DNA of 43,086 bases from a virus. Lineage: Duplodnaviria > Caudoviricetes. The translations under genes and the position numbers were made by a program. The number at the start of each line of letters is the position of its first letter. The stretch's first letter is position 1. The notes beneath the pieces were generated by a model, which saw only the letters and a list, made by a program, of their open reading frames with translations, made no database searches and was not told where the DNA came from. The stretch covers positions 1-43,086 of the IMG/VR virus record IMGVR_UViG_3300045996_001729; one strand, written 5' to 3'. Shown one piece after another: positions 10,425 to 42,726 of this stretch.

Positions 10425-10430
10425 TATACT
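10425..10430 (+). promoter_or_regulatory. Sigma70-like -10 of an accessory cassette, probably leaderless
   Basis: TATACT with 6 nt between it and ATG 10437. Confidence 0.6.
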
Positions 10431-10436
10431 GGGGGC

Positions 10437-10694
10437 ATGGACACGCCCGACCACCGCTGCCCGGCGTGCGACTCCCCCGACGTGTGCCTCGGGGCGTTCC
10501 CGCTGAAGTGCTTCGCCTGCGGCTGGTCCTACCTGAACAAGCACCCGTGCGAGACGTGCGGGGCGCCGGCCGTGGCGGTCATCGGCGGGGCCGGTGGCCG
10601 CCGCTACCGGTGCGCGGCCCACCCGTTCGGGTCCGACGACGTGCGGGCGTCGTTCGCGGGGTTCGTCGCCTCCGTGACCGGGGGCCGCCCGTGA
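10437..10694 (+). CDS. Small zinc-ribbon protein (accessory gene)
   Basis: CPAC, CFAC, CETC, CAAH; own -10. Confidence 0.65.
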   Translation: MDTPDHRCPACDSPDVCLGAFPLKCFACGWSYLNKHPCETCGAPAVAVIGGAGGRRYRCAAHPFGSDDVRASFAGFVASVTGGRP

Positions 10695-12994: not shown

Positions 12995-13261
12995 ATGCCG
13001 GGTGACACCCTGACCGCCCCGACGTACCCGAACCCGCCGGGGTTCCCGTACACCCTGCGGCACCCCCTGACGCACGTCCGCGGCTGGACGTTCGAGGACG
13101 TGGAACTGGTCGTCAAACCGCTGCGGCTGGAGGCGAGGCCGGCTTCGCCACCCGAGATGGATTTCGTCGCCGCGTGGGCCGAGATCGAGGCTGCCGCCCG
13201 GAAGCACGCCGCCGCGTCCCTGATCGCCCGGCTGACGGCGGGGGACCGCCCGAAGGAGTAG
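12995..13261 (+). CDS. Hypothetical protein
   Basis: Abuts the portal stop; GC3-biased. Confidence 0.6.
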   Translation: MPGDTLTAPTYPNPPGFPYTLRHPLTHVRGWTFEDVELVVKPLRLEARPASPPEMDFVAAWAEIEAAARKHAAASLIARLTAGDRPKE

Positions 13262-13268
13262 CCCGTCC

Positions 13269-16200
13269 ATGCCCCGCCTCCTCAAGTACACCCCGGCCCA
13301 GTTGACCGACATCCTCAAGGCGGCCAAGGCCGCGGGCCGGGACGAGGTGCTGGCCGGGCTGCGCGCCGTGGCCGCGCTCAACGGCAGCGCCCGGCGGGTG
13401 CTCAAGGCCGGCGACTGGGCCGACGACGAGCACCCCGACCCCCTGCCCGAGCCCGACGTGGACCCCCACGCCGCCCTCTGGGAAGCCGCCCTGGGGGCGG
13501 TGCTGGAGGCGAAGGAGGCGGGGGACGAGGAGGCGGTGGCGGGGCTGGTCGAGGCGTACCGGGGGCACCTGGACGACGGGGACCTGCTCGCCGGGGCGGT
13601 GGGGACCGCGGGGGCCGGCGCCGCGATCGAGAAGGCGGTCGGCCGGGTGCTGATGAAGGCCCACGCCTGGAGGAGTGACCAGCACCCCCGCGGCAAGGAC
13701 GGGCGGTTCCTGGCCGTCAGCCGGATCGAGGCCGCCGCCGGCAACCCGAAGGTCGCCGCCGAGCTCCGGGAGGAGGTCCGGCCGGAGGACGCCGGGAAGC
13801 TCGAGACGGCCCTCGCCGACCCCGACCACCTGGGACGCACGAAGGCCGGGCAGCGGCGGCACGAGGCCGGGCAGCGGCGGCAGAAGCGGTCCGCCGACTT
13901 CCGCCGGGCCTCCGAGCTCGCCGACAAGGTGTCCACCGGGCACGCGACGTATGAAGAATTGCAGGAGTTGGGCGACCATCTCGAAGGGCTGTCCGCGGAC
14001 GGACTGCGGTCGTTGCAGAGCCGGATCGAGACGGTGGGGGGCGGGCGGCGGAAGGCCGAGATGGTGGCGGCCTTGAGGGCATCGCTGGACGAGCACCGGC
14101 GGGGGGTGCATGGGGGGGAGTTGGAGGCGGACGCGGGGGCCCCGGCGGGCGAGGACTCGCACCCCGGCAGCGTGTTGACGGACCGGATGGGGAAGCCCAT
14201 CGACCACGAAGGGCGACCACTCCGCCACGGCGACGTGATGGTTCACTCGAACTGGCGGGGCGAGGAGCGGCTGGTGCAGGTCGGCCATGCGTGGGCGAAC
14301 GGCGGCCGGGACGTGAACGGGGTCAGCAAGGACCGTGTGACCGTGACCCCGGACGCCAGCACCCGCAACGCCGGGTTCGGGTTGAGCGACAGCGAGACGG
14401 ACCTGTCCGACCTGCGGCGGGCGACCGCGGACGACGTTCACCGGCTGGCGGCGGCCACGGGCGGCAAGCCGGACGAGTTCCTGAACCCCCACCTGCTCGC
14501 GGGCGGGGCCGCCCCTGCCCCGGGCGGGGACGGCTCCAAGACCGCCGTCCTCCGCGAGGCCGTCCAGTCCCTCGTCGCCGCCGGCCACACCGACGACGAG
14601 ATCACGTCGCTGCTGGGCCGCCCGGGGTCGCCGGGCGAGGGGGCGGTGGGGCGGGTGCTGGGGGAGGTGAGGGGGGAGGGGGCGTCAGCCGCCCCTGCCC
14701 TTCCAGACGCGGCGGGTGATGCGGCCCGACCCGCGGCACCGGGGGCAGGAGATGCGCTCCCCGCCGGCCCCACCGCAGTTGGGGCAGTCGATCCGCTCGT
14801 TGGCGGCGTAGTTGACCGACAGGTAGGGCGGCCCGGGGACCCAACTCACCAGGATGAACCGGCCGTCGGTCAAGTCGAAACCCGCGAACTCCATGCTACG
14901 TCCCCCGGTGGTGTGTCAGGGGATTCTACCGCACCGCCAGAGCCGCACGAGATGACGGCCTACGACTTCGCCACCCAGCACTCGCGGCGGATGACGGAGT
15001 TGCAGCGGACCAAGCCCCGCGACATCGGCAAGTTGTACGGGAAGCGTGGCCCGACCCCGGAACAGGCGGCCGAACACGCCGCCGAGATGAAGGAGTGGAA
15101 CCGGCAGCACCGGCAGGCGAGCAACGCGAACAGGCAGTACCTTGCGGATCAAGGCGCCCACCGCCGGCATGTGGAAGCCGCCCTCGCCGCCGGCCGCCCC
15201 GTCCCCCCCGAAGTCCTCGCCGACTACCCGGACCTCGCCGCCCCCCCGCCCACCCCCGCACCCCCCGCCGCCCCGCCCTGGGTCGCCTCCGACCCCGCCC
15301 ACGCCGCCGTCCACGCGGCGCACCAGACCGCACCGGGCAAGGCCCGGGACGTGATGCAGACGGCCCTGGAGAACGCGGGCTGGGTGGACGAGCACGGCCG
15401 GCCCGCGAAGACCGCCCCGCAGGACGAGCAGGGCGGCCGGACCCCGCTGGGCATGGCCGCGAGCGGATTGGCGACCGGCCACCGGCACCTCGCCGAGAAC
15501 GGGGGGACGCCCGAGGAACTGGCCCACGTCGAACGCGCCCTGGAGGCGGCGGGGGCCACCCGGGTCGGCACCCCGGGCGAGACGGTGCCGTTCGACGGGA
15601 GCGTCCACGGGAACGTCCCGGGGGTGTTCACGGGCGACCCGGTGCGGGTGGTGCATCCCGGCTGGGTGGCGCCGGCGGGGAACGGGCGGGACTCGGACGT
15701 GATGCCGGCGAGGGTTACGGCGGGAAGCCCAGCAGGGCCCGCCACTCCGCCGTCGGCCGGGCCCGGTACTCCGCCGCGTCCTGCTCCCACTGGCCCGCAA
15801 GATGCTCAAGGGCCTCCACCCGGAACTCGTGGTCGGGGAGGTCGGGCGGCGCCCACCCGCACCCCGGGAACCACCGCAGCCACCGCACCGCCTCCCGGCG
15901 GAGCCGCGCCGCCTCCCGCTCCGCAAAGCGGATCTCTTTCGCCGCGAAGTCCCGGGCGTGCGCATCAAGATCGTCAGGCATCGGACGTCCCCCCGGGGGC
16001 ATCATACGGGGCGAAGCCCGCCCTCACGCCGGACGAGCACGCGGCCGAGATGGAGGAGTTGAAGCGGGCCCGGCAGGCGGCGTTCTCCGCGACCGGCGCC
16101 GACCCCCGCGGGGACATGGCCCACATCACCCCGGAGCGGCTGGCGGCGGTGACCCCGGCCATCGCCGGCGAGGTCAAGGCGTGGGCCGACACGCACGCCG

Positions 16201-18209
16201 GGGTCGGCCCGGCCGTCCACGACCTGTACCAGCGGGTCGGCGTCCCGGCGGGGATGAGCCCCCGGGAGTTCCGGGCGGCCATGCTCCATCTGGCCGAGTC
16301 CCGGGTGATCGCCCCGGGGGTGTGGAGCAAGCCGATCGCCGAGGCCCCCCGCCCCGACCTGATCGCCCACCACGCCTCGAAGGCGGTCGGGTACGCCCAC
16401 CCCGACCGCGGGCTGGACGCCGCCGCCAAGCCCGCCCCCCTCCCCGCCCTCCCCGACGACCCCCGCCGCAGCCTCCCGGCCGTGGACGCGGGCCCGTCGC
16501 CGCTGCCGGAGCTGCCGGACCCGGGGGACGTGGCGGTGCCGGAGTTGGAGCCGGTCAAGCCCGCGGGCGACGCACCCTTCATCCCCCGGTCCGGGCAGTT
16601 CAACCCGGCGACTCGAGAACTGCACCGGCACACCTACGCCGTTCGGCTGGGCGACGTGTTGGCGCAACTGGTACGGGAGCACAAGCCCGGGGGGTCCATC
16701 CCGGACGACATCCTGACCACCGCGCGGATCGACACGCGGTACAAGGTGGGGATGACTCCGGAGGACGCCGCCCGGGAAATCTTCCACGACCTCGTGAAGC
16801 CCCGGCTCGACATGCGACCGCCGGAGAAGACGCCGCTCGAGTTGGCCCGGCGGGTGACGCGGCACGGGGCGCCCTCGAAGCCCGCCCCCGCCGCCAATCC
16901 CCCGACCCCGGCCGCGTATACTCCTCCGTCAGCCCCGGAGGCGAAGCCCGTGACCCCGACCGCCAAGCCCGCAGCCGGCCGTCTGACCGGCGACCAGATC
17001 GCGGCCGACTGGGAGGCCGGCCCGCCCCCGACCGCCGAGCGGGCCAACGCCGCGATCCGGGCCGCCGCCGCGATGCCGAAGGCCGAGGCGGCGGCGGCCC
17101 TCCGGGCGATGGGGTTCGTCCCCCGGGGCGACCCGCGGCGGCACCTCGCCGACGCGATCCACGGCCGGGCCGGGGCCACCAGCCGCCGCAACCTGATCGA
17201 CCGGGGCGCCGCCGCCGACGCCAAGCGGGCGGCCGAGGCCGGCACCGACCGGCTCGTCCACCCCGACGAGGTGTTCGGCGCCGCCGCCAAGCCCGCCGCC
17301 GGGCCCGCCCCGAAGCCCGCCCCCGCCCCGAAGCCCGCCCCCGCCGCGGCCGAGCCCCCGGCGTCCGACGCCGGCCGGGCGATGGCCGACCTGCTCGGCC
17401 GGGCGGGGTCGGCCGACCCGGCGGAGGTGGAGGCGGCCCGCGCGACCCTCGCCGGGCTGCCCGGCGACGAACTCCGGCGGGTGGCGGCGGCCCACGGGTT
17501 CCACTACCCGGCGGGCCACTCGGCCCGGAAGGTCGCCGCCGACCTGCACGACCGGATGCAGAAGATCGCCGGGGCCAGCGTCCGGCGGAAGCTCATCAAC
17601 CGGGCGGACCCCGGCCCAAAAGCCCCGGCCCCGGGTGAGCCGGGGAAGGCCGAATCCGGTAATTCCCCCAAGATTCCGTCAGCCGCCAGCGGCGGCCCTC
17701 CGGCCGATCCATTTCATGGCAGCAAGGTTGCCGCCCCTGACGGCAAGCCGATGACCGTCTTCCACGGCACGAGCGGTCCGGCGTTCGACCAGTTCAAGCT
17801 CGGGGCGGGTCAGACCCGGCAGGCGCCGGACTCGGACGTCGGGTTCTGGTTCGCCGACCGGCCGAAGAACGCGGAGATGTACACGTACAACGATAACATT
17901 TGGTCGGGCGCCGGGCCGGTCAAGAAGCTCAAGGGCGCCCGGGTGGTGAGCGCCCACCTGAACATCAAGAACCCGAAGGTTTACGGTTCCTTCCACGACG
18001 TGTTCAGCGAATCGGAGAAGGCTGGCGGCGGCGCGGCGCTCCGGGAAAAGCTGATCGGCGAGGGGCACGACGGCATCCGGGTGCTGGAAGACGCCGGCGA
18101 GCACACGAAGTATCAGCCGGCGTGGGCGGCCTTCCACCCGGAGCAGATCCGGGTGGCCGATGCCGGTTCCGCCCCCGAGCCGCCGAAGGGGCGGCCGAAG
18201 AAGGCGTAA
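13269..18209 (+). CDS. Large polyvalent (probably virion-packaged) protein with C-terminal ART-PolyVal-like ADP-ribosyltransferase fold
   Basis: 1646 aa between portal and protease; W..DQHPRGKDGRF motif, GrpE-like segment near 15530-15670, C-terminal SKV..PDGKP.TVFHGT..F..F...GFWFAD...AE.Y...HLNIKNP. Confidence 0.8.
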   Translation: MPRLLKYTPAQLTDILKAAKAAGRDEVLAGLRAVAALNGSARRVLKAGDWADDEHPDPLPEPDVDPHAALWEAALGAVLEAKEAGDEEAVAGLVEAYRGHLDDGDLLAGAVGTAGAGAAIEKAVGRVLMKAHAWRSDQHPRGKDGRFLAVSRIEAAAGNPKVAAELREEVRPEDAGKLETALADPDHLGRTKAGQRRHEAGQRRQKRSADFRRASELADKVSTGHATYEELQELGDHLEGLSADGLRSLQSRIETVGGGRRKAEMVAALRASLDEHRRGVHGGELEADAGAPAGEDSHPGSVLTDRMGKPIDHEGRPLRHGDVMVHSNWRGEERLVQVGHAWANGGRDVNGVSKDRVTVTPDASTRNAGFGLSDSETDLSDLRRATADDVHRLAAATGGKPDEFLNPHLLAGGAAPAPGGDGSKTAVLREAVQSLVAAGHTDDEITSLLGRPGSPGEGAVGRVLGEVRGEGASAAPALPDAAGDAARPAAPGAGDALPAGPTAVGAVDPLVGGVVDRQVGRPGDPTHQDEPAVGQVETRELHATSPGGVSGDSTAPPEPHEMTAYDFATQHSRRMTELQRTKPRDIGKLYGKRGPTPEQAAEHAAEMKEWNRQHRQASNANRQYLADQGAHRRHVEAALAAGRPVPPEVLADYPDLAAPPPTPAPPAAPPWVASDPAHAAVHAAHQTAPGKARDVMQTALENAGWVDEHGRPAKTAPQDEQGGRTPLGMAASGLATGHRHLAENGGTPEELAHVERALEAAGATRVGTPGETVPFDGSVHGNVPGVFTGDPVRVVHPGWVAPAGNGRDSDVMPARVTAGSPAGPATPPSAGPGTPPRPAPTGPQDAQGPPPGTRGRGGRAAPTRTPGTTAATAPPPGGAAPPPAPQSGSLSPRSPGRAHQDRQASDVPPGASYGAKPALTPDEHAAEMEELKRARQAAFSATGADPRGDMAHITPERLAAVTPAIAGEVKAWADTHAGVGPAVHDLYQRVGVPAGMSPREFRAAMLHLAESRVIAPGVWSKPIAEAPRPDLIAHHASKAVGYAHPDRGLDAAAKPAPLPALPDDPRRSLPAVDAGPSPLPELPDPGDVAVPELEPVKPAGDAPFIPRSGQFNPATRELHRHTYAVRLGDVLAQLVREHKPGGSIPDDILTTARIDTRYKVGMTPEDAAREIFHDLVKPRLDMRPPEKTPLELARRVTRHGAPSKPAPAANPPTPAAYTPPSAPEAKPVTPTAKPAAGRLTGDQIAADWEAGPPPTAERANAAIRAAAAMPKAEAAAALRAMGFVPRGDPRRHLADAIHGRAGATSRRNLIDRGAAADAKRAAEAGTDRLVHPDEVFGAAAKPAAGPAPKPAPAPKPAPAAAEPPASDAGRAMADLLGRAGSADPAEVEAARATLAGLPGDELRRVAAAHGFHYPAGHSARKVAADLHDRMQKIAGASVRRKLINRADPGPKAPAPGEPGKAESGNSPKIPSAASGGPPADPFHGSKVAAPDGKPMTVFHGTSGPAFDQFKLGAGQTRQAPDSDVGFWFADRPKNAEMYTYNDNIWSGAGPVKKLKGARVVSAHLNIKNPKVYGSFHDVFSESEKAGGGAALREKLIGEGHDGIRVLEDAGEHTKYQPAWAAFHPEQIRVADAGSAPEPPKGRPKKA
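14685..14894 (-). CDS. Nested antisense gene: 69-aa protein with two CxxCxGxG (DnaJ-type zinc finger) motifs
   Basis: CPNCGGAG and CPRCRGSG; GC3 bias on minus strand; GGGGGA RBS; TAGAAT -10 at 14928-14923. Confidence 0.75.
   Translation of the reverse strand: MEFAGFDLTDGRFILVSWVPGPPYLSVNYAANERIDCPNCGGAGGERISCPRCRGSGRITRRVWKGRGG
15715..15981 (-). CDS. Nested antisense gene: 88-aa helical protein
   Basis: MPDDLDAHARDFAAKEIRF...; GC3 bias on minus strand; GGGGGGA RBS; TATGAT -10 at 16006-16001. Confidence 0.7.
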   Translation of the reverse strand: MPDDLDAHARDFAAKEIRFAEREAARLRREAVRWLRWFPGCGWAPPDLPDHEFRVEALEHLAGQWEQDAAEYRARPTAEWRALLGFPP

Positions 18210-18271
18210 CCCGCCCCCGGGCGTCTCGCGGGCCGTAGGATGTGGTGCCACGTCACGCGGGGGTGGGGCGA

Positions 18272-19126
18272 ATGCGGAACCCGTTCAGGATCGACGGCCC
18301 GGCGGTGGTGAGTTTCAGCGGGGGGCGGACCTCCGGGCTGATGCTCTGCCGCATCCTCGAAGCCCACGGCGGCACCCTGCCGGCGGACGTGAAGGTGGTG
18401 TTCTGCAACACCGGGAAGGAGCGGGAGGAGACGCTGGAGTTTGTCGAGCGGTGCTCGCAACAGTGGGGCGTGCCGGTGGTGTGGCTGGAGTACCGCTACG
18501 AGCCCGGCGATCCGGAGGGGCGGCACACGTTCGCGGTCGTGGACTTCGCCACCGCCAGCCGCGCCGGTGAGCCGTTCGAGGCGATCGTCCACGCCCGCAA
18601 GTGCCTTCCCAACTTCCGCGCCCGGTTCTGCACCAGCGAACTGAAACTGCGGACCAACATGCGTTACCTCCGGTCGCTCGGCTGGACGGAGTGGGACAAC
18701 GCCATCGGCCTGCGGCACGACGAGCCGCAGCGGGTGGCGAAGATCCGCGGCCGGCAGGAGGTGAAGGCCGAGACGGTGACCCTCCCCCTGGACGCGGCGG
18801 GGGTCACGCTGGCAGACGTGACCGCGTTCTGGGCCGCGCAGCCGTTCGACCTTGCCCTCTCCCCCGAGGAGGGCAACTGCGACCTCTGCTTCCTCAAGGG
18901 GCCGAACAAGGTTCGCCGGCTGATCCGCGACCGCCCTGAATCGGCCGACTGGTGGGCACGCATGGAGACGCTGATACCGAGCCCGACTTACGGAACCCTG
19001 CGGTTCCGTAACGACCGGCCGAGTTACGCGGCCCTCAAGGACCACATGACCCGGCCGGGGCTGTTTCCGCTGGAGTCGTTGGACGAGCCCGACGAGTTGG
19101 CGATCGCCTGCCACTGCACCGACTGA
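18272..19126 (+). CDS. PAPS reductase-family (PP-loop) protein
   Basis: SFSGGRTSG, FCNTGKE..ETLEFV, FCTSELK, IGLR.DE..R, QPFDL, GNCDLCFLKG; TAGGAT -10 at 18236-18241. Confidence 0.9.
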   Translation: MRNPFRIDGPAVVSFSGGRTSGLMLCRILEAHGGTLPADVKVVFCNTGKEREETLEFVERCSQQWGVPVVWLEYRYEPGDPEGRHTFAVVDFATASRAGEPFEAIVHARKCLPNFRARFCTSELKLRTNMRYLRSLGWTEWDNAIGLRHDEPQRVAKIRGRQEVKAETVTLPLDAAGVTLADVTAFWAAQPFDLALSPEEGNCDLCFLKGPNKVRRLIRDRPESADWWARMETLIPSPTYGTLRFRNDRPSYAALKDHMTRPGLFPLESLDEPDELAIACHCTD

Positions 19127-19176
19127 CCCCACCCCCGCCCCGGCACCGCCCGGGGCGACTCACTTCCCGCCCCCGG

Positions 19177-19446
19177 TCAGCCGCCCCACCGGGTCGTCAT
19201 CGGCACGTCGTAGCGGGGCGGGGCGAAGCACTCCGCCGGCACCACCCGGGGCCGGTCCACGAAACCCGACACGATCACCCGCAGCCCGCCGCAGGTGGCC
19301 GTGGCCGGGTCGGCAACCACGTCCTTCGACACCCCCAGCCCGTCGCAGAGTGCGTCGATCGACGGGGTGACTATCACCAACTCCGGCGGGCGCGGCCCGA
19401 GTTTCTTCGCCTCGGCCACCGCCCGCATCACGTCGTCGCGCGTCAT
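19177..19446 (-). CDS. Hypothetical accessory gene
   Basis: ATG at 19446, GC3 bias, TAGGAT -10 at 19473-19468. Confidence 0.6.
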   Translation of the reverse strand: MTRDDVMRAVAEAKKLGPRPPELVIVTPSIDALCDGLGVSKDVVADPATATCGGLRVIVSGFVDRPRVVPAECFAPPRYDVPMTTRWGG

Positions 19447-19484
19447 CGCCCGCCCCCTTTGCCCCACATCCTACACCCTCCCCC

Positions 19485-19512
19485 GGCAGGTTCCCCCGGC
19501 CCCCGCGACGAT
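19485..19512 (+). promoter_or_regulatory. Putative late promoter upstream of protease/capsid
   Basis: Box + GACGAT at offset 22. Confidence 0.75.
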
Positions 19513-19520
19513 GCGGATAC

Positions 19521-20792
19521 ATGGGCCTCAGCCTCCGCCACCTTGCCGCCCCCCTGCTCCACAAGAGCGTGGACCCGTCACGGATGACCGTGACGGCCGC
19601 GCTCACCTACCCCGTCACCGACCGCGCCGGCGACTACGTCGTCCCCGCGGGCATCGACTGGGCCGTCCACAAGGCGGACCCGTGGGTGGGGCTGGAGCAC
19701 TACCGCTGGACCCGCGACCGCACCGACTGGGTGCTGCCCGGCCCCCGCGACGTGGACCTCGAGCCCGTCCGCGTCGGCACCGCCGCCCGACCCGACGGCC
19801 GGTACGCGGTCGAGCTCAAGGCGATGCGGGAAGGCCCCATCCCGTTCGGGACGACGCACTTCTCGAACTCCCGGCTGGGCACGCAGACGTTCCGGCTGGT
19901 CGAGGACGGCACCCTGGACGGCGTGTCGATCGAGTTCACCTTGCGCAAGGGCTGCTACTCGGAGCTCGGCCCGAGCCCGCTGGAGAACCGCCCGGCGTAC
20001 CGGGTGGAGTCCTGCACGGGGCTGGGCTGGGTGCATTGCGTGACCCCCGTCAACCCGGGGGCGCTCGTCCTCAAGGCCCTCCACTCCGCCGCCGCCGAGC
20101 GGGCGACCCGCGTCGTCCGGGACGGCCGGGTCGGCGTGGAGGAGGCCCACCCGCTCATCCTCAAAGCCCTGTCGCGGTTCGCGCCGGGCAAGTCCACCAC
20201 CGTCACCAGCGGCTTCGCCCGCGTGGAGAAAGCAATGGCCGACAGCCCGGAGATGGAACCGGCCTACGAGCCGGAGGACGCGGCCCCGGAGGCGGCGGAG
20301 GGCACCCCGACCGCCCAGGCGGCCTACACGCTGTCCCAGGGGCTCGAGGACCTGTGCGGGCAGGTGAAGGAACTGCTCGGCAAGGGCGAGCACGTCAAGG
20401 GCAAGGCCAAGCTCAACCGGGTGCTGGAGGACCTGGAGGACGCGAAGGCCGCCGCCCTGGAGGCCGCCAAGCTGGTCGAGGCCGACACCGGCGACAAGGC
20501 CGACGACGAGTCCGAGCCGGAGCCCGAGCCGCTGGCCGACGACGCCACCGACGCGGACGACGACGGCTACCTGAAGGCGATCCCGGTCGCCATCCGCAAG
20601 TCGATCCGCCGGTTCTCGCTGGCGGAGGTCCGCAAGGCCGCCCCGGTGGCGCCGCCCGCGGCACCCGAGCCGGAGCCGGCCCAGAAGTCCACCTACGAGC
20701 AACTGGTCGAGGCGTATGCCGCCGACCCGAGGGGGGTCGAGCGGTTGGACCGCCGCTCCCGCAAGAAGCTTCCCGCGTTCCTGACCGACTAA
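19521..20792 (+). CDS. Prohead protease fused to acidic scaffold-like region
   Basis: DRAGDYVVP.GID, LEH, LVEDG.L.GVSIEF, VTPVNPGA; acidic C-terminal half; precedes capsid. Confidence 0.8.
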   Translation: MGLSLRHLAAPLLHKSVDPSRMTVTAALTYPVTDRAGDYVVPAGIDWAVHKADPWVGLEHYRWTRDRTDWVLPGPRDVDLEPVRVGTAARPDGRYAVELKAMREGPIPFGTTHFSNSRLGTQTFRLVEDGTLDGVSIEFTLRKGCYSELGPSPLENRPAYRVESCTGLGWVHCVTPVNPGALVLKALHSAAAERATRVVRDGRVGVEEAHPLILKALSRFAPGKSTTVTSGFARVEKAMADSPEMEPAYEPEDAAPEAAEGTPTAQAAYTLSQGLEDLCGQVKELLGKGEHVKGKAKLNRVLEDLEDAKAAALEAAKLVEADTGDKADDESEPEPEPLADDATDADDDGYLKAIPVAIRKSIRRFSLAEVRKAAPVAPPAAPEPEPAQKSTYEQLVEAYAADPRGVERLDRRSRKKLPAFLTD

Positions 20793-24390: not shown

Positions 24391-24421
24391 GCGGGATCCC
24401 CCGGGGGGATTCGCTACTTTT
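24391..24421. terminator. Putative terminator between convergent genes
   Basis: GCGGGATCCC/GGGATTCGC stem followed by TACTTTT. Confidence 0.5.
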
Positions 24422-24764
24422 GTTCTTCGCCCGTGAAGTGGACGATCGTGTCGAACCCGAGGAATTCCACCGCCGGCTGGATCTTCAACCCGACCAGTCG
24501 CAGCACCACCCCGACCATGGACGGCCCGGCGGTGACGGTGAGCCGGTCCCCGCGGGCGATACTGGTGTAGAACGTCGCCCCGGTGACGGTGCCGATCAGC
24601 CCCGCCTGGTCGAACCGCTCCTGCTCGTTGGCCCCGCCCACGTTCAAGAGGCACACCACCCCCGTGTCCCGGGTCGTCCACGACAGGGCCTCGCCGCCGC
24701 CGGCGTCCCGGGTCGCGGTCGGGTACTCGACCGTGACGGTGTGCTCCATCATCGCGTCGAACAT
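24414..24764 (-). CDS. Head closure / head-tail adaptor (SPP1 gp16-like)
   Basis: HTVTV..P...RDAGGG...SW and GDRLTV; coupled to the connector gene. Confidence 0.7.
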   Translation of the reverse strand: MFDAMMEHTVTVEYPTATRDAGGGEALSWTTRDTGVVCLLNVGGANEQERFDQAGLIGTVTGATFYTSIARGDRLTVTAGPSMVGVVLRLVGLKIQPAVEFLGFDTIVHFTGEEQK

Positions 24765-25453
24765 CACGACCCCCCGCCGATCTTGAGCGGGTCGTAGAGC
24801 CCGTACAGCGACGCCAGCACGTCCGGCGAGTGGACCGCCGCGGTCGCCGTGAACGGCCCCGCCCCGCTGTAGCTCGCCCCGTTGAGCGAGGCGGACACCA
24901 GGGGTATCCCCGACTTCCGCCGGGCCAGGATCATCGCCACGGCCTGATAGACCGCCGTCCGCACCCGGGGGGGTACGACGGTGTAGCCGTAGGTGTAGTT
25001 CACCAACACGGCCCCGGGCACGCTGACCACGTCGGACGCGAGCCGGCCGTAGGGGCGGACCAGCGAGGCGCCCCAGAACGAGGCGTTGAGGATCTCGACC
25101 GTCCCGTACTTCGACCACCCCTCCGGCCGCTGGTCGATGACCAGCCGGTAGTCCGTGTAGGCCACCTTGAGGTAGTCGCTGGTGAACAGGCTGGGGTCGC
25201 CCTTCGCGTCCCGGCGGACGTAGAGGCTGGTTATGGCCCGGACGGGGCGGAGCGGCAGGTAGAGCTTCTGGGAGCCCCACGGGGCGTCCAGGACGTGACT
25301 GGTGGCGGTCCCCGCCTCCAGCACGGTCGGGTGGACGAGGGCCTTGACCGCGTCCTCGACCTCCGCCACCACGTCGGCGACGGCGGTCTGCTGGGCGGCG
25401 GTCAGCGTGAGCTGGTTCCGCTGGGCGAACTCCTCGGCGCTGGCGAGTGCCAT
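24764..25453 (-). CDS. Head-tail connector (HK97 gp6/SPP1 gp15-like)
   Basis: LAS.EEF, LPLRPV..ITSL, V.V.YTYGY..VPP.VR.AV. Confidence 0.8.
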   Translation of the reverse strand: MALASAEEFAQRNQLTLTAAQQTAVADVVAEVEDAVKALVHPTVLEAGTATSHVLDAPWGSQKLYLPLRPVRAITSLYVRRDAKGDPSLFTSDYLKVAYTDYRLVIDQRPEGWSKYGTVEILNASFWGASLVRPYGRLASDVVSVPGAVLVNYTYGYTVVPPRVRTAVYQAVAMILARRKSGIPLVSASLNGASYSGAGPFTATAAVHSPDVLASLYGLYDPLKIGGGS

Positions 25454-25484: not shown

Positions 25485-25688
25485 TCACGTACCGGAAGTG
25501 TCGCGGGGCGGGGGGGAACCTGCCGACTCCCGCACCGCGTCCCCCAGCCGGCGGACCGCCCGCACGTCCGCCGCCACCCGCCACCGGCGGTAGACGCCGA
25601 CGTGCCGGAACGCGAGGGTGTCGAGCCGGTCGAGGGCCGGCCGCCGGGCGGCGGCCCGGAGCCACAGGTCGAGGAGTCGGTCGGCCAC
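25485..25688 (-). CDS. Small Arg-rich hypothetical protein
   Basis: GTG with GGAGG RBS; TATGAT -10 at 25719-25714. Confidence 0.5.
   Translation of the reverse strand: MADRLLDLWLRAAARRPALDRLDTLAFRHVGVYRRWRVAADVRAVRRLGDAVRESAGSPPPRDTSGT
25497..25524 (-). promoter_or_regulatory. Putative late promoter for the inverted connector genes
   Basis: Minus-strand box + GACACT at offset 22. Confidence 0.75.
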
Positions 25689-25730
25689 GGGCGGTCCTCC
25701 GGGGGGTCGCCGCATCATACCGCCTCCCCC

Positions 25731-31523: not shown

Positions 31524-32944
31524 CCCCCGCCGAGCGACGGGAATTCGACGCCCTCAAGGCGAAGCTCGCCGCCGTCGAGCGGCGGGTGGGGGACGCCCGC
31601 GGGCTGGGGGTCAATACGACCTTCGGGGCGACCCACCACCGGACGACGCAACTGGGGTTCGCGGCCGAGCTGACCGCGGCGTGGGACGCGACCGACGGGT
31701 ACGCCTGGAAGCGGCTGCGGCTCGAGGCGGTGGCCCTCACCGACCCGGGCGTCCAGTTGATCGGCACGGGGGCGGTGACCCCGGCCGGGGACGAGACGCT
31801 GGAGGCGGGGACGCCGGGGTGGATGGAGCCGAGCCCGGACGGGACGGGGTACGTCTTCACCCCGGACCCGGGCGCGGGCGCCGCCGGCGCCTGCCAGTCC
31901 ATGCTGGTCGGGCTCGACCCGCAGGCGTGCCTCACGGGCACGGTCCGGGCCGGCACCGAGGGGTGCTCGACCGTCGAGGGCGCGACCGTCTACCTCACCT
32001 ACGACGCGGGCGCCGGCACCGGCACCCGGGGCGGGTGGGTGTCGTCGGCGTTCACGACCGCCGACGGGGACACCACGGTCACGGTGTTCCTGGACGCGCA
32101 GGGCGACGTCCGCGCCACCATCGTCGGGGAGAGCGAGGAGGAGCAGTACCTGACCCCCGAGGGGTGCGTCAACGGGCGGCTGCGGTTCTCGGGCTCCGAC
32201 TGCCTCTGGTGCGGCGGGGAGTGGGAGCGGGGCTGCGGCAAGAACCGGTTCTACGTCGAGGTCGAGTGCGGCTGTACGATCGCGTGCGCCGCGTGCCCGG
32301 GGCTGGTGGGCACCGAGGTCGTGATGGAGGGCTACCTGGGGTACACCGTCAGCGGCACCTGGGTGGTCTTCGACGGCAAGCTCTACCTGTCGCTCCTGTC
32401 GGCGCCGACCGAGTCCGGCGAGTCGGCCGCCGGGGTTAACATCACCTGCGACCCGGACACCGGGACGGCGTACCACGGCGGCGACCCCGGGAACGTCGTC
32501 ACCGTCACGCCGGTCGGCGACCCCGGCGCCCCGACCACGCTGACGTTCCAGTGGGACGAGTACTCGTTCACCGTCGAGTGCGGCGAGTCCGACGACCCGT
32601 ACAACCCGTGCGGGACCGGCAGCGGGCCGGGGACCGGCGGCCCGGACAGCGGGTGCGGGCGGGGGTTCGGCTCGCCCGACCTGACCATGACCGTCACCGG
32701 CGGGCCGGACGCCGGCGCCTACCCCGGGTCGTGGGTCGCCGGCTCCCCGGACTACGTCGCGTTCGAGCTCCCCGTCTACGGGACGGTGGTGTTCGAGTTC
32801 TTCGGCGGCGCGTGGCACCTCGTCTCGAACCCCGGCACCGTCCAGGACGAGGAGGCGACCGGGGGCACCTGCACGCCCGACTTCGAGGTCGAGTTCGAGG
32901 GGTCCACCATCACCGGGGCGACTGGCGTGACGGTGACCGAATGA
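31520..32944 (+). CDS. Cys/Gly/Thr-rich tail protein
   Basis: GTGA-coupled start at 31520; acidic, beta-rich, many Cys. Confidence 0.6.
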   Translation: MTPAERREFDALKAKLAAVERRVGDARGLGVNTTFGATHHRTTQLGFAAELTAAWDATDGYAWKRLRLEAVALTDPGVQLIGTGAVTPAGDETLEAGTPGWMEPSPDGTGYVFTPDPGAGAAGACQSMLVGLDPQACLTGTVRAGTEGCSTVEGATVYLTYDAGAGTGTRGGWVSSAFTTADGDTTVTVFLDAQGDVRATIVGESEEEQYLTPEGCVNGRLRFSGSDCLWCGGEWERGCGKNRFYVEVECGCTIACAACPGLVGTEVVMEGYLGYTVSGTWVVFDGKLYLSLLSAPTESGESAAGVNITCDPDTGTAYHGGDPGNVVTVTPVGDPGAPTTLTFQWDEYSFTVECGESDDPYNPCGTGSGPGTGGPDSGCGRGFGSPDLTMTVTGGPDAGAYPGSWVAGSPDYVAFELPVYGTVVFEFFGGAWHLVSNPGTVQDEEATGGTCTPDFEVEFEGSTITGATGVTVTE

Positions 32945-34059
32945 CGTGCTCCTGCGCCCGGCTGAAGGTCTCCCCCTGCCACCACCGCCGGCCGGGCGGC
33001 GGCGACTGCGCCCACCGGGGCGGCCCGACCGGGCAGACCGCCCCGTGCCGGACCTGCGGCGGCCGGGTCGAGTTGAAGGTGTACGCCTGCGCCGTCCACG
33101 GCACCTGCACGCTGGGGCGGAAGGTCGAGGGGCACGGCTGCTGCCAGGGCTGCCCCGACCGGCCGCTGCCCCCCGCCCCGCCCGACGCCCTCCCCCCCGC
33201 CCGGCTCGTCCAGGTCGGCCCGGAACGACTCGCCGCCCGCAAGGACGGGTACAGCTTCAACGCCAGCCGCATCCGCTACCGCGACCGCATTTTGATGGCT
33301 CACCGCGACGGGTGGGCGGGCTCGGACATCCACGTCGCGGAACTGACCGAGAGTTACGAGGTCGTCCGGTCAACGCGGCTGAGGCTGCGGCACCCCCGGG
33401 CGGCGGGCGGCCGGGAGGACCCGCGGCTGTACCTGTTCGGGGGCCGGCCGGAGGTGATGTTCACGGGCGTCGAGCGGATCGGCCGGACGATCCGCACGTC
33501 GGTCCTGTACGCCCGGCTCGGGGACGACCTGAGCGTCGGGGAGGTGTTCTACCCGGAGCTGGACGGGCGGAACGAGCCGATGGAGAAGAACTGGAGCCCG
33601 TTCGATTACGACGGGGAGTTGCTGGCGGTGTACCAGACCGGGCCGCGGCACGAGATCGTCAGGCTGTCCGGGAACAGGGCCGAGCGGGTGGCGGGCGAGG
33701 TGGTCGGCCTGCCGTGGTCGGGCGGGGTGATGCGGGGCGGGGCGCCGCCGGTCCGGGTCGGGGGCCTGTACTACCACTGGTTCCACGGCCGAATCGGGTC
33801 GCCGAAGTCGCCCGTGTACAACGTCGGGCTCTCGGTGTTCGAGGCCCGGCCGCCGTTCAAGGTCGTGGCGATGACCCCGAACCCGCTGATGTGGGGCGAC
33901 CCGAACGACCGGGACGGGTGCTACGCCGCGGTACGATTCCCCTGCGGCGCCGCGCTGCACAACGGCAACTGGGAAGTCTCGATGGGCTGGAACGACAGGA
34001 AGATCAAGGTCGCGGTGTGGGACGCCGCGGCCGTTGACCGCCACCTGGGGCTGGCCTGA
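32941..34059 (+). CDS. Cys-rich N-domain fused to GH130-like five-bladed beta-propeller glycosidase
   Basis: FNAS, REDPRL, EKNWSPF, RGGAP, WFH, PPF, V.FPCGA, SMG.ND. Confidence 0.75.
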   Translation: MTCSCARLKVSPCHHRRPGGGDCAHRGGPTGQTAPCRTCGGRVELKVYACAVHGTCTLGRKVEGHGCCQGCPDRPLPPAPPDALPPARLVQVGPERLAARKDGYSFNASRIRYRDRILMAHRDGWAGSDIHVAELTESYEVVRSTRLRLRHPRAAGGREDPRLYLFGGRPEVMFTGVERIGRTIRTSVLYARLGDDLSVGEVFYPELDGRNEPMEKNWSPFDYDGELLAVYQTGPRHEIVRLSGNRAERVAGEVVGLPWSGGVMRGGAPPVRVGGLYYHWFHGRIGSPKSPVYNVGLSVFEARPPFKVVAMTPNPLMWGDPNDRDGCYAAVRFPCGAALHNGNWEVSMGWNDRKIKVAVWDAAAVDRHLGLA

Positions 34060-38399: not shown

Positions 38400-39164
38400 C
38401 TACCCGCCGACGGGCGTGGTGAGGGCGGCTGCCGCCGTCCAGCCGCGTTGCAGTCGTGCGCGGATGGTCGGGGACGCGATGCCGGTCACCGCCTCCCACT
38501 CGCCCGCCGTGAGCGTGCGGCCGTCGTGGGTGATGGTCGTCACCTGTTCGGCCGGGGCGGCGATGGCGGCGGCGAACGACATGCCCGCGTCAAGGCGGTT
38601 GCGGAGGGTCGTCGGCTTGAGGCCGACCCGCACCGCCCACCGCGTCATGCTCAGCGTCTCCCCGTTGTGGGTGTACCGGCGGGTGCGGGTGGTGTTGTCC
38701 GCTTGCTCCACGCGGGTGGCCCAGACGCAGTTCTCGGGCGAGTAGGGGCCGTCCACGTCCTTCCGCTCGATGGTGTGGGCGAGGGTGGGTCGCTCACCCA
38801 TGTCTGCGAGGAAGTTCTCGAACGAGTGGCGCCACCGGTCGCAGACGGCGATACCGCGACCGCCGTAGCGATCGTAACCGGTGGCGTTCGCCCTGTGGCA
38901 GCGGGAGTTCATTACCGCCCACGTTCGGTACTCCGGGCTGTGGGATCGCCCGTGAGACGTGACCGTCTCCCGCTGGAGACACCCGCAACTGCGGTGCTTC
39001 CCGGCGGTCAGAGACGTGGCAAACGCGATGCTCTCGCCCCCGCAGTCGCACCGGCACCGCCAGAGAACCTTCTTGCCCTTGCGGCCGGCGAAGGCGGTCA
39101 CCAGCAGCCGGTCGAACCGTCGGCCTTCGAGGTCTTGGAACCGCCAGTGTGTCGGCTTGTCCAC
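38400..39164 (-). mobile_element. Free-standing HNH-family homing endonuclease gene
   Basis: WRCRCDCG, SCGC, YGGRGI.VC.RW..F..F.ADMG.RP, TIER.D.DG.YSPENC.WAT; two C-terminal HTH repeats; own TATAGT -10 at 39211-39206 and GAGGA RBS. Confidence 0.88.
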
Positions 39165-39250
39165 GATGGATCGTCCTCGGGCGAGTGTGGCGAACAACAC
39201 GCCACACTATACGCACCGTGGGCATCCAATAATTAGGGGAGGGTAAGAAA

Positions 39251-41486: not shown

Positions 41487-41590
41487 GGCGGCTTCGGAAC
41501 GCCTGGCACAACATCGTGGTTCATCCGCTCGCCGGGGTGTGTTGGCTGTTCGGCTTCGAGCGGGCCGGCGACTGGTTACACGGAGACTGA
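41483..41590 (+). CDS. 35-aa peptide with HNxxxHP...WLH motif
   Basis: GTGA-coupled; MRRLRNAWHNIVVHPLAGVCWLFGFERAGDWLHGD. Confidence 0.6.
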   Translation: MRRLRNAWHNIVVHPLAGVCWLFGFERAGDWLHGD

Positions 41591-41592
41591 CC

Positions 41593-42726
41593 ATGCCCGA
41601 CGAAACCCCGACCCCCTCCTGGCGGGACTACCTCCCCGGCCCGTCCGTCGTCAAGACGGCCCTGCTGTGGCTGGTGACGAGCGTCCTGTTCGCCATCGCC
41701 GCCCGGTACGGGTTCCCGCCGCCGCCGGTGTTCGTGGACCGGGAGGTGGTCAAGGAGGTCCAGGTCTTCGTCGGGCTGGGGCCGGACGAGCCGGTGACGG
41801 GCTGGGTGTCCGACCCGGACGAGGTGGCCGCCGTCGTCGCCCGGGTCGCCCCGCCGGTGTTCGCGGACACCCCCGCCGGCCAAGCTCAAGACCTGCCGGC
41901 CGCGGTCTACCTCTGGAAAGCCTATGAGCGGCTGCCCGGCAAGACCCCGCCGGTGAAGAACCAGGGTCAGGTCGGGTCGTGCGTCTCGTTCGGCACCAAC
42001 GCGGCGGTCGAACGCACGCTCGCCGCGCAGGCCGCCGCCGGCCAGCCGTGGGAGTGGGTGCGGTTCACCGAGGAGGCCACCTACGGCGGGAGCAGGGTTG
42101 AAGTCGGCGGGGGCCGCATCCGCGGGGACGGGTCGGTCGGGGCGTGGGCCGCCGAGTTCGTCGTCAAGTGGGGGATGTTGCCGAGGCAGAAGCACGGCAG
42201 CGTGGACACCACCACGTACAGCGAAAGCCTGTGCCGGCAGTGGGGCAGCCGCGGGGTGCCCGACGACCTCGAGGCGACCTGCCGCAAGTTCCCCGTCAAG
42301 GACACCACCCGGATCACCACCTGGGCCGACGCCAAGAAGGCCCTCGCCAGCGGCTACGGCATCGCCGTGTGCAGCAACCAGGGGTTCGCGTTCCAGCGGG
42401 ACCAGAACGGCGTCTGCCGGACGTCCGGGTCGTGGGCGCATTGCATGTGCCTCGACGGCTACCACACGGAGGGCGGCCGGGAGTACGGCCACATCGTCAA
42501 CTCCTGGGGCGGCGACGCCCACCGCGGCCCGGTCGGCTGGGGCAACCCCGGACCGGACGGGTTCTGGGCCGAGTCGGCTACCGTGGACCGGATGCTGAGG
42601 CAGGGCGACTCGTGGGCGTTCAGCGGGGCGACTGGATTCCCGCGGCGCGTGCTTCCGGATTGGTTTATCACCGCCCCGCGGCCCCGCCCGCTCTTGCCCC
42701 GGGCCGAATTCGCCCTGGCCTTCTGA
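41593..42726 (+). CDS. Membrane-anchored papain-like (C1) cysteine peptidase
   Basis: NQGQVGSCVSFG (Gln/Cys), WAHCM (His), IVNSWG (Asn); N-terminal hydrophobic helix. Confidence 0.88.
   Translation: MPDETPTPSWRDYLPGPSVVKTALLWLVTSVLFAIAARYGFPPPPVFVDREVVKEVQVFVGLGPDEPVTGWVSDPDEVAAVVARVAPPVFADTPAGQAQDLPAAVYLWKAYERLPGKTPPVKNQGQVGSCVSFGTNAAVERTLAAQAAAGQPWEWVRFTEEATYGGSRVEVGGGRIRGDGSVGAWAAEFVVKWGMLPRQKHGSVDTTTYSESLCRQWGSRGVPDDLEATCRKFPVKDTTRITTWADAKKALASGYGIAVCSNQGFAFQRDQNGVCRTSGSWAHCMCLDGYHTEGGREYGHIVNSWGGDAHRGPVGWGNPGPDGFWAESATVDRMLRQGDSWAFSGATGFPRRVLPDWFITAPRPRPLLPRAEFALAF

Follow-up and report, generated by a model that had tools for sequence, protein, structure and literature searches.

Can a complete small gene lie on the opposite strand of a giant phage gene that stays open throughout, and if so, which of the two frames carries the coding signal and how did the arrangement arise? 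The locus that raises these questions lies in the window, that is, the whole stretch of DNA analyzed, which is the whole of a 43,086-nt virus record with 73% GC. The host group of the phage could be Planctomycetota, which is a guess on our part; a temperate lifestyle was seen only in a relative (the G003 provirus).

The giant polyvalent gene

The gene lies in the head module of this tailed phage, between the terminase (8894) and portal (11345) genes on one side and a PAPS reductase-like gene and the capsid gene (20831) on the other. Its product has several domains, one of them of polyvalent type, and shares modules with relatives, and the phage context is that of terminase and portal genes; no MuF domain was detected. 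The features that concern us here are the following (L003, L007, L008, and L087 are loci of related phages, introduced below).

13269..18209, plus: giant polyvalent gene, 1646 aa, no stop
15447..15719, plus: domain upstream of the nested ORF N2 and abutting its stop; also in L003, L008, and, by eye, L087
16030..16092, plus: EHAAEM short helical module, 71% DNA-identical over 63 nt to 15067-15129
16176..16379, plus: giant-gene module after N2, weak match to a module of L003, L007, and L008 (domain E 0.013 in a 4-protein search)
16917-16952, plus: sense -10-like TATACT, GGAGG, and in-frame GTG (codon 1228), in another linker
17739..18161 (aa 1491-1631), plus: ART-PolyVal domain PF18760, 46.2 bits against a Pfam cutoff of 31.2

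The domain at 15447..15719 may be GrpE-head-like, a label for which Pfam and PDB searches came back blank. The flanks of the giant gene are coding, since a variant contig covering 15444-15598 has 8 of its 9 differences at third positions and 7 of 9 synonymous. A structure model of the giant-protein segment (pLDDT 49) gave no structure over N2 or over the neighboring beta region and is uninformative. The TATACT site uses codons that are rare in core genes (TAT 5 versus TAC 111; ACT 4 versus ACC 139), and from these signals we predict an internal start, which could yield the ART domain in a separate product of 419 aa. A third AT-richer linker, at 17600-17740 before the ART domain, has a low codon score in all six frames, and no ORF or clear promoter was found in it.

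An antisense ORF with promoter-like and SD-like signals

The sequence-only reading had described, on the minus strand of this gene, TATGAT, then GGGGGGA, then an ATG at 15981 opening an 88-aa frame with strong GC3. All of these were found again at the same positions.

15981-15715, minus: nested ORF N2, ATG at 15981, stop TAA at 15717-15715, 88 aa
16006-16001, minus: -10-like hexamer TATGAT, 5/6 match to TATAAT
15994-15988, minus: SD-like run GGGGGGA
15985..15994, minus: the SD-like run GGGGGGA plus CGT, including the 9-mer common to N1, the other nested ORF

The whole of N2 falls within an open gene on the opposite strand, as is the case for any embedded antisense overlapping gene. Two further in-frame ATGs lie upstream, at 16005 and 16002; because both fall within the TATGAT hexamer, 15981 is the likelier start. 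Hexamers of 5/6 quality are scarce: only 8 occur in the whole window on both strands, 3 of them in the giant gene, and none in the giant genes of six relatives, and the chance of finding one within 45 nt of a given start is about 0.004. Across the hexamer site, the plus frame of the giant gene reads the rare codons GCA TCA TAC. The predicted promoter of N2 consists of a 5/6 -10 hexamer, together with an SD-like run and without a -35; no good -35 was found for N2, and a strict two-hexamer promoter scan returned 0 sites. At the 3' end of N2, no terminator-like site was found, nor was any unusual RNA fold at the cassette ends, and Rfam gave 0 matches over 13000-20000.

A 351-nt contig agrees with 15781-16131 at every position; it comes from a public soil run that may be related to the source sample. 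A contig from a second public soil run, whose independence from the source is uncertain, exactly matches 14826-14976 in the N1 region. The left end of N2 (15715-15780) is bridged by none of the listed independent contigs, and no contig with a variant inside N2 was found. Among the listed runs with this sequence, none was an RNA run, which speaks neither for nor against expression.

The codon signal changes strand over N2

The GC3 of the N2 minus frame is 0.90, but this alone is no proof of a gene, because a Pro/Ala/Gly-rich plus frame yields it automatically. The informative sign is that the giant-gene frame loses its codon bias over N2. Read across N2, aa 817-905 of the giant protein form a stretch that is 71% Pro/Ala/Gly/Arg, and GC3 in this frame is 48/89, compared with 1394/1487 in the remainder of the gene, which bears out the earlier description of a low-complexity stretch with atypical codons. 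At four-fold sites, GC3 of the giant frame over N2 is 45/78, versus 130/138 in five further linkers of this gene that are equally rich in Pro and Ala (Fisher p 1e-10). The codon score of the minus frame minus that of the host-gene frame is 1.62 for N2, and the maximum among 901 overlapping control windows is 0.99, so that the gap at N2 is higher than in 901/901 of them. A maximal-segment scan blind to ORFs, with starts and stops ignored, placed its best segment (143 bits) at 15724-15975, with limits within 9 and 6 nt of the N2 ends. Because the codon signal moves to the minus frame exactly over the ORF, the minus gene appears to be ancestral, with the plus peptide a secondary product.

Only 3/87 N2 codons start with A, versus 18% in core genes; this scarcity could be an adaptation to the giant-gene frame. 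That frame stays open over N2 in 79% of synonymous recodings and in 66% of N2 codon shuffles, compared with 18% for random 88-codon gene chunks. Openness is therefore cheap given the N2 protein, and the overlap needs a filter rather than fine coadaptation. Taken together, N2 is very probably a protein-coding gene, now or until recently.

Fold and homologue searches for N2

AlphaFold, run without an alignment, folded N2 as a helical hairpin (pLDDT 85), in line with the helical protein first proposed. Structure searches returned generic hairpins only: the best BFVD match had E 0.46, and the best fold match in the PDB (Z 8.9, rmsd 2.9, 77 aligned) was again a generic hairpin. In the Atlas search, the best score was 0.75, with a recognition value of 1751, below 2300. 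No homologue was found among 11 word-sharing candidates (lengths 48-154 only), in viral contigs and annotated phages, or in related virus records (0/5, all five records incomplete). The sole match in 1.84 billion representatives (P0034, E 3e-8) is a 6955-aa repeat protein, which we take to be nebulin; it was rejected as a repeat artifact because the score sums 11- to 16-residue W..GCGW matches. No free-standing donor copy of N2 was seen in the homologue searches. Neither N2 nor N1 is among the called protein sequences tested, where a free-standing cassette of the same phage (19446) was called.

A second nested ORF, N1

Another minus-strand ORF lies farther upstream in the giant gene.

14894-14685, minus: nested ORF N1, 69 aa, CxxC..CxxC zinc-finger-like, phrog_3931 E 1e-4
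14923..14928, minus: -10-like hexamer TAGAAT of N1, 5/6

Its codon pattern is like that of N2 but weaker, with a score of 0.95, and 4/946 windows are as high. The searches found no homologue of N1, and DnaJ-type zinc-finger look-alikes scored under 0.9. Judged by these signals, both nested ORFs look like real genes in inter-domain linkers.

It had also been observed that N1 and N2 share a sequence just before their starts. This is so, and at the same offset: the 9-mer GGGGGACGT stands 3 nt before both ATGs, and only 2/595 gene-start pairs, the N1/N2 pair among them, share at least 9 nt at the same offset. However, GGGGGACGT is mostly local ribosome-binding-site style. GGGGGAC also precedes the gene at +4918, where the offset is identical, and a minus gene of L087, and the free-standing cassettes at 19446 and 25688 are without the 9-mer; the shared 9-mer is therefore weak evidence for one cassette type. 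Of the two EHAAEM copies (15067-15129 and 16030-16092), one lies downstream of each nested gene's promoter, and the shared 9-mer together with this duplicated module may be a hint of a common origin of both cassette heads.

Free-standing cassettes in the same phage

The layout of a -10 hexamer, an SD sequence, and a short ORF is also free-standing in the phage, at -19473, -25719, +10425, and +18236.

10425-10694, plus: 85-aa gene with its own -10-like hexamer, inside the head module; hexamer-ATG spacing 6 nt
18236-19126, plus: PAPS reductase-like gene with its own -10-like hexamer, inside the head module
19177..19473, minus: free-standing cassette, TAGGAT, GGGGG, 89-aa ORF; between genes; called in a public collection
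25485..25719, minus: cassette, TATGAT, GGAGG, 67-aa ORF

By its sequence, the 85-aa gene at 10425-10694 may be leaderless. In the window, L003, and L006, a minus -10 lies 13 to 16 nt behind the motif GGAACCTG, upstream of the gene preceding the capsid gene, and the ORF differs each time. GGAACCTG was considered as a -35 of the nested genes and rejected, since neither N1 nor N2 is preceded by it and the window has 11 copies. A combined pattern matched 0/83 loci.

A repeated motif, GGGGAACCTGCC (GGCAGGTTCCCC on the plus strand), occurs in several copies near late-region gene starts.

8410, 11320, 19494, 25740, 26746, 30410, 34448, 35179, and 40665, minus: GGGGAACCTGCC copies in the window
25515 and 41047, plus: GGCAGGTTCCCC copies in the window
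102, 2049, and 8654 of L003 and 8528 of L006: copies of GGGGAACCTGCC in relatives

Three phages conserve it ahead of the gene that precedes the capsid gene, and some copies have a divergent minus -10 behind them; the motif is a candidate late promoter or regulator site.

Several other features of the window were seen in passing. The region 24417-25453 (minus), with head-tail adaptor and weak head-closure matches, is inverted relative to the other structural genes, possibly through inversion or misassembly. An HNH endonuclease gene at 38400-39211 (minus) has its own TATAGT hexamer. The tail-side region matches a papain-family peptidase at 41539-42726 (plus) and, weakly, glycoside hydrolase 130 at 32551-34059 (plus).

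Relatives and a wider survey

Scans with the capsid and the N-terminal domain turned up six distinct giant genes (L003, L005, L006, L007, L008, and L087), from distant relatives with a portal identity of 64% or less; scanning metagenome and genome contigs with the portal yielded a single distant locus from each. The nearest portal relatives (P0005, P0006, P0007, and P0010) are 63-75% identical and lie on contigs of 11-21 kb. A nested minus ORF beating the giant frame was found in 0/6 of these relatives, where the best value was -0.11, versus 1.57 for N2 and 0.99 for N1. L003 and L008 (E 3-5e-5, three-protein database) and, by eye, L087 have the domain that lies upstream of N2, each with a plain linker behind it and no nested ORF there. 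N2 is thus absent at the same site in related, although distant, phages (3/3), as a moron would be, and insertion is the likeliest origin because these relatives have the upstream domain and a plain linker.

Between the giant and capsid genes, 4/6 relatives have promoter-bearing minus genes, which differ between phages. Those of L003, L007, and L087 were found by script and that of L006, which failed the script's codon threshold, by eye; none was found in L005 or L008. The minus gene of L003, with its promoter, ends 42 nt beyond the giant gene's stop.

For a wider survey, the module between N1 and N2 served as the query. The best 80 of 138 matches gave 79 loci, 76 of them with a giant frame of at least 400 codons; with the six relatives, this makes 82 genes, of which 75 are distinct and many are truncated by the 5-kb flank. 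A codon flip combined with a promoter and SD sequence was found in 0/82 of these other polyvalent-type genes. Marginal codon gaps without a promoter occurred in two (0.18 and 0.19), and likewise in 4/232 control frames. The survey test scores N2 clearly (1.16) and N1 barely (0.13), and short, atypical, or RNA genes would escape it; a first pass (self-trained model, threshold 0.4) missed N1, and the threshold was then loosened. Its power, 0.98 on 47/75 genes, is an upper bound, with donors chosen by the same model. Sense promoters within polyvalent-type genes were in mild excess, with 18 against 12.6 expected (controls, 9 against 21.6), and antisense promoters were not enriched (7 observed versus 13 expected). 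One sense promoter lies inside a second polyvalent-type gene of L006.

6662-6720 of L006, plus: canonical promoter TTGACA-17-GATAAT, GGAGG, in-frame ATG

The sequence-only reading had proposed that polyvalent-gene linkers serve as landing sites for antisense cassettes. As a general rule this was not supported by the scan of related genes. What does stand is that both nested ORFs lie in inter-domain linkers and that the relatives' plain linkers favor insertion.

How N2 may have come to lie in the giant gene

On balance, and with modest confidence, we favor N2 as a moron-like passenger gene that was inserted in the linker behind a conserved domain and was tolerated since the giant frame stayed open. 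We imagine that N2 would be self-contained, with its own predicted -10 and ribosome site, while the giant protein would read the region as an unstructured spacer. Small promoter-bearing genes appear to keep reaching the late region of this phage in both orientations, mostly between genes, and an insert would survive in a long, linker-rich polyvalent gene when it adds no stop or frameshift, which should be common at 73% GC. N2 might be read by the host polymerase in the lysogen or in early infection and the giant gene late, so that the two need not clash. This passenger reading is favored because the same layout is also free-standing in the phage and because minus genes lie behind the giant genes of relatives. 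Counting against it, no homologue of N2, -35, or terminator was found, and no target-site duplication is evident at N2. Against plain tolerance, two events in one gene, versus 0/82 elsewhere, are an excess of clustering.

Alternatively, a free minus gene between two plus genes could have been engulfed by read-through fusion, via stop loss or module recombination. The L003 minus cassette, so close behind the giant gene's stop, is consistent with such a course, as is the internal promoter, SD sequence, and in-frame ATG of L006, as if a whole unit had been absorbed; the modules right after N1 and N2 are alike, each with an in-frame ATG (M563 and M929), and polyvalent proteins are described, in the main text of PMC5512222, as assembled from solo modules. 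However, there is no clear SD sequence before M563 or M929, and L003 and L008 already join the upstream domain and a weakly matched downstream module through plain linkers. Because both modules stand in one polypeptide there, the continuity of the giant gene looks older than N2, and we regard fusion as fairly unlikely.

One can envision a broader scheme in which the linkers of virion-packaged polyvalent genes hide complete promoter-RBS-gene cassettes and the giant genes lengthen by taking up such units, the sense ones becoming domains with internal starts (16917 and L006) and the antisense ones staying nested genes, with N1 and N2 derived from one cassette head and acting as early partners or antidotes of giant-protein domains; we consider this scheme doubtful.

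The narrower idea of a cognate partner or immunity factor, raised in the sequence-only reading, is that N2, made early, binds or neutralizes a giant-protein domain and that nesting keeps the two linked. The physical nesting, the promoter-like signal, the small helical protein, and the ART effector domain in the giant protein all fit. In MuF toxin-immunity pairs (PMC5576092), an effector-bearing gene likewise lies near the portal gene with a small ORF nearby. There, the immunity ORF follows the toxin gene, whereas N2 lies inside the giant gene on its opposite strand and at a distance from the ART effector domain, which begins about 1.7 kb farther downstream. Nothing ties N2 to the neighboring domains, and the proposal is quite unlikely.

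In a fourth explanation, the promoters at 19473, 16006, and 14928 would damp leaky late-gene expression by antisense control, and the ORFs would help the RNA to escape termination. The recurrence of a minus -10 behind GGAACCTG with different ORFs and the lack of a terminator at the N2 end suit this explanation; antisense promoters, though, are not enriched within polyvalent genes, and the codon bias of N2 is strong up to its stop, beyond the need of a regulatory RNA. We give it little credence. No more probable is a nonworking gene (a foreign fragment that has decayed or was never expressed, or a chimera of the assembly), for although N2 is an orphan in every search, is uncalled, has a low Atlas recognition value, and has an unbridged left junction, its start, SD sequence, -10, and stop are intact and match the blind codon segment, N1 is likewise intact, and exact contigs come from two studies, whose runs may be related to the source.

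Relation to known systems

A classical moron has its own terminator and a position between genes. N2 is nested and no terminator-like site was found for it; it would work like a moron, to judge from its sequence, but we do not class it as a classical one. The closest likeness is to Tab, an 83-aa moron that Pseudomonas phage JBD26 carries on the minus strand within a late operon, under a promoter of its own (PMC10884400). Like Tab, N2 is small (88 aa), orphan-like, and on the minus strand in a late head-gene region, with a promoter that for N2 is predicted. Unlike N2, Tab is intergenic, its homologues occupy a fixed site, and its defense function has been tested; N2 is wholly inside an open reading frame, and no homologue was found. 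By the Tab analogy only, N2 would be an accessory factor against the host or rival phages.

The giant protein resembles the polyvalent proteins of terminase-portal phages (PMC5512222) in being long and multidomain, in its place in the portal-capsid interval, in its ART-PolyVal domain, and in its shuffled modules; the main text of that paper has 0 occurrences of "opposite strand," "linker," and "low-complexity." Like nog1, asa, laoB, and ano of bacteria (PMC7457138), N2 is an ORF embedded antisense in a protein-coding gene. According to that review, such bacterial genes are typically younger than their host gene; here, it is instead the N2 frame that holds the codon signal. Embedded antisense genes, morons, and polyvalent proteins are each known, and their combination is found in no paper searched; a literature search with supplements and most subscription papers outside its scope turned up no account of polyvalent genes that contain nested antisense genes.

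Implications

The scope of these findings is one genome and an orphan protein, in an arrangement that is apparently rare in the sample examined. Within it, N2 provides a clean, sequence-level case of a contested arrangement, in which the nested antisense frame and not the giant frame carries the coding signal. Detection is simple, combining a drop of GC3 in the giant frame with a -10 hexamer. Annotation may drop such genes, as suggested by N1 and N2, which are uncalled, and by their called free-standing twin at 19446. Our findings suggest that low-complexity linkers in giant phage proteins are in some cases shadows of real genes, and the tolerance of such genes is a possible route for polyvalent proteins to gain length.
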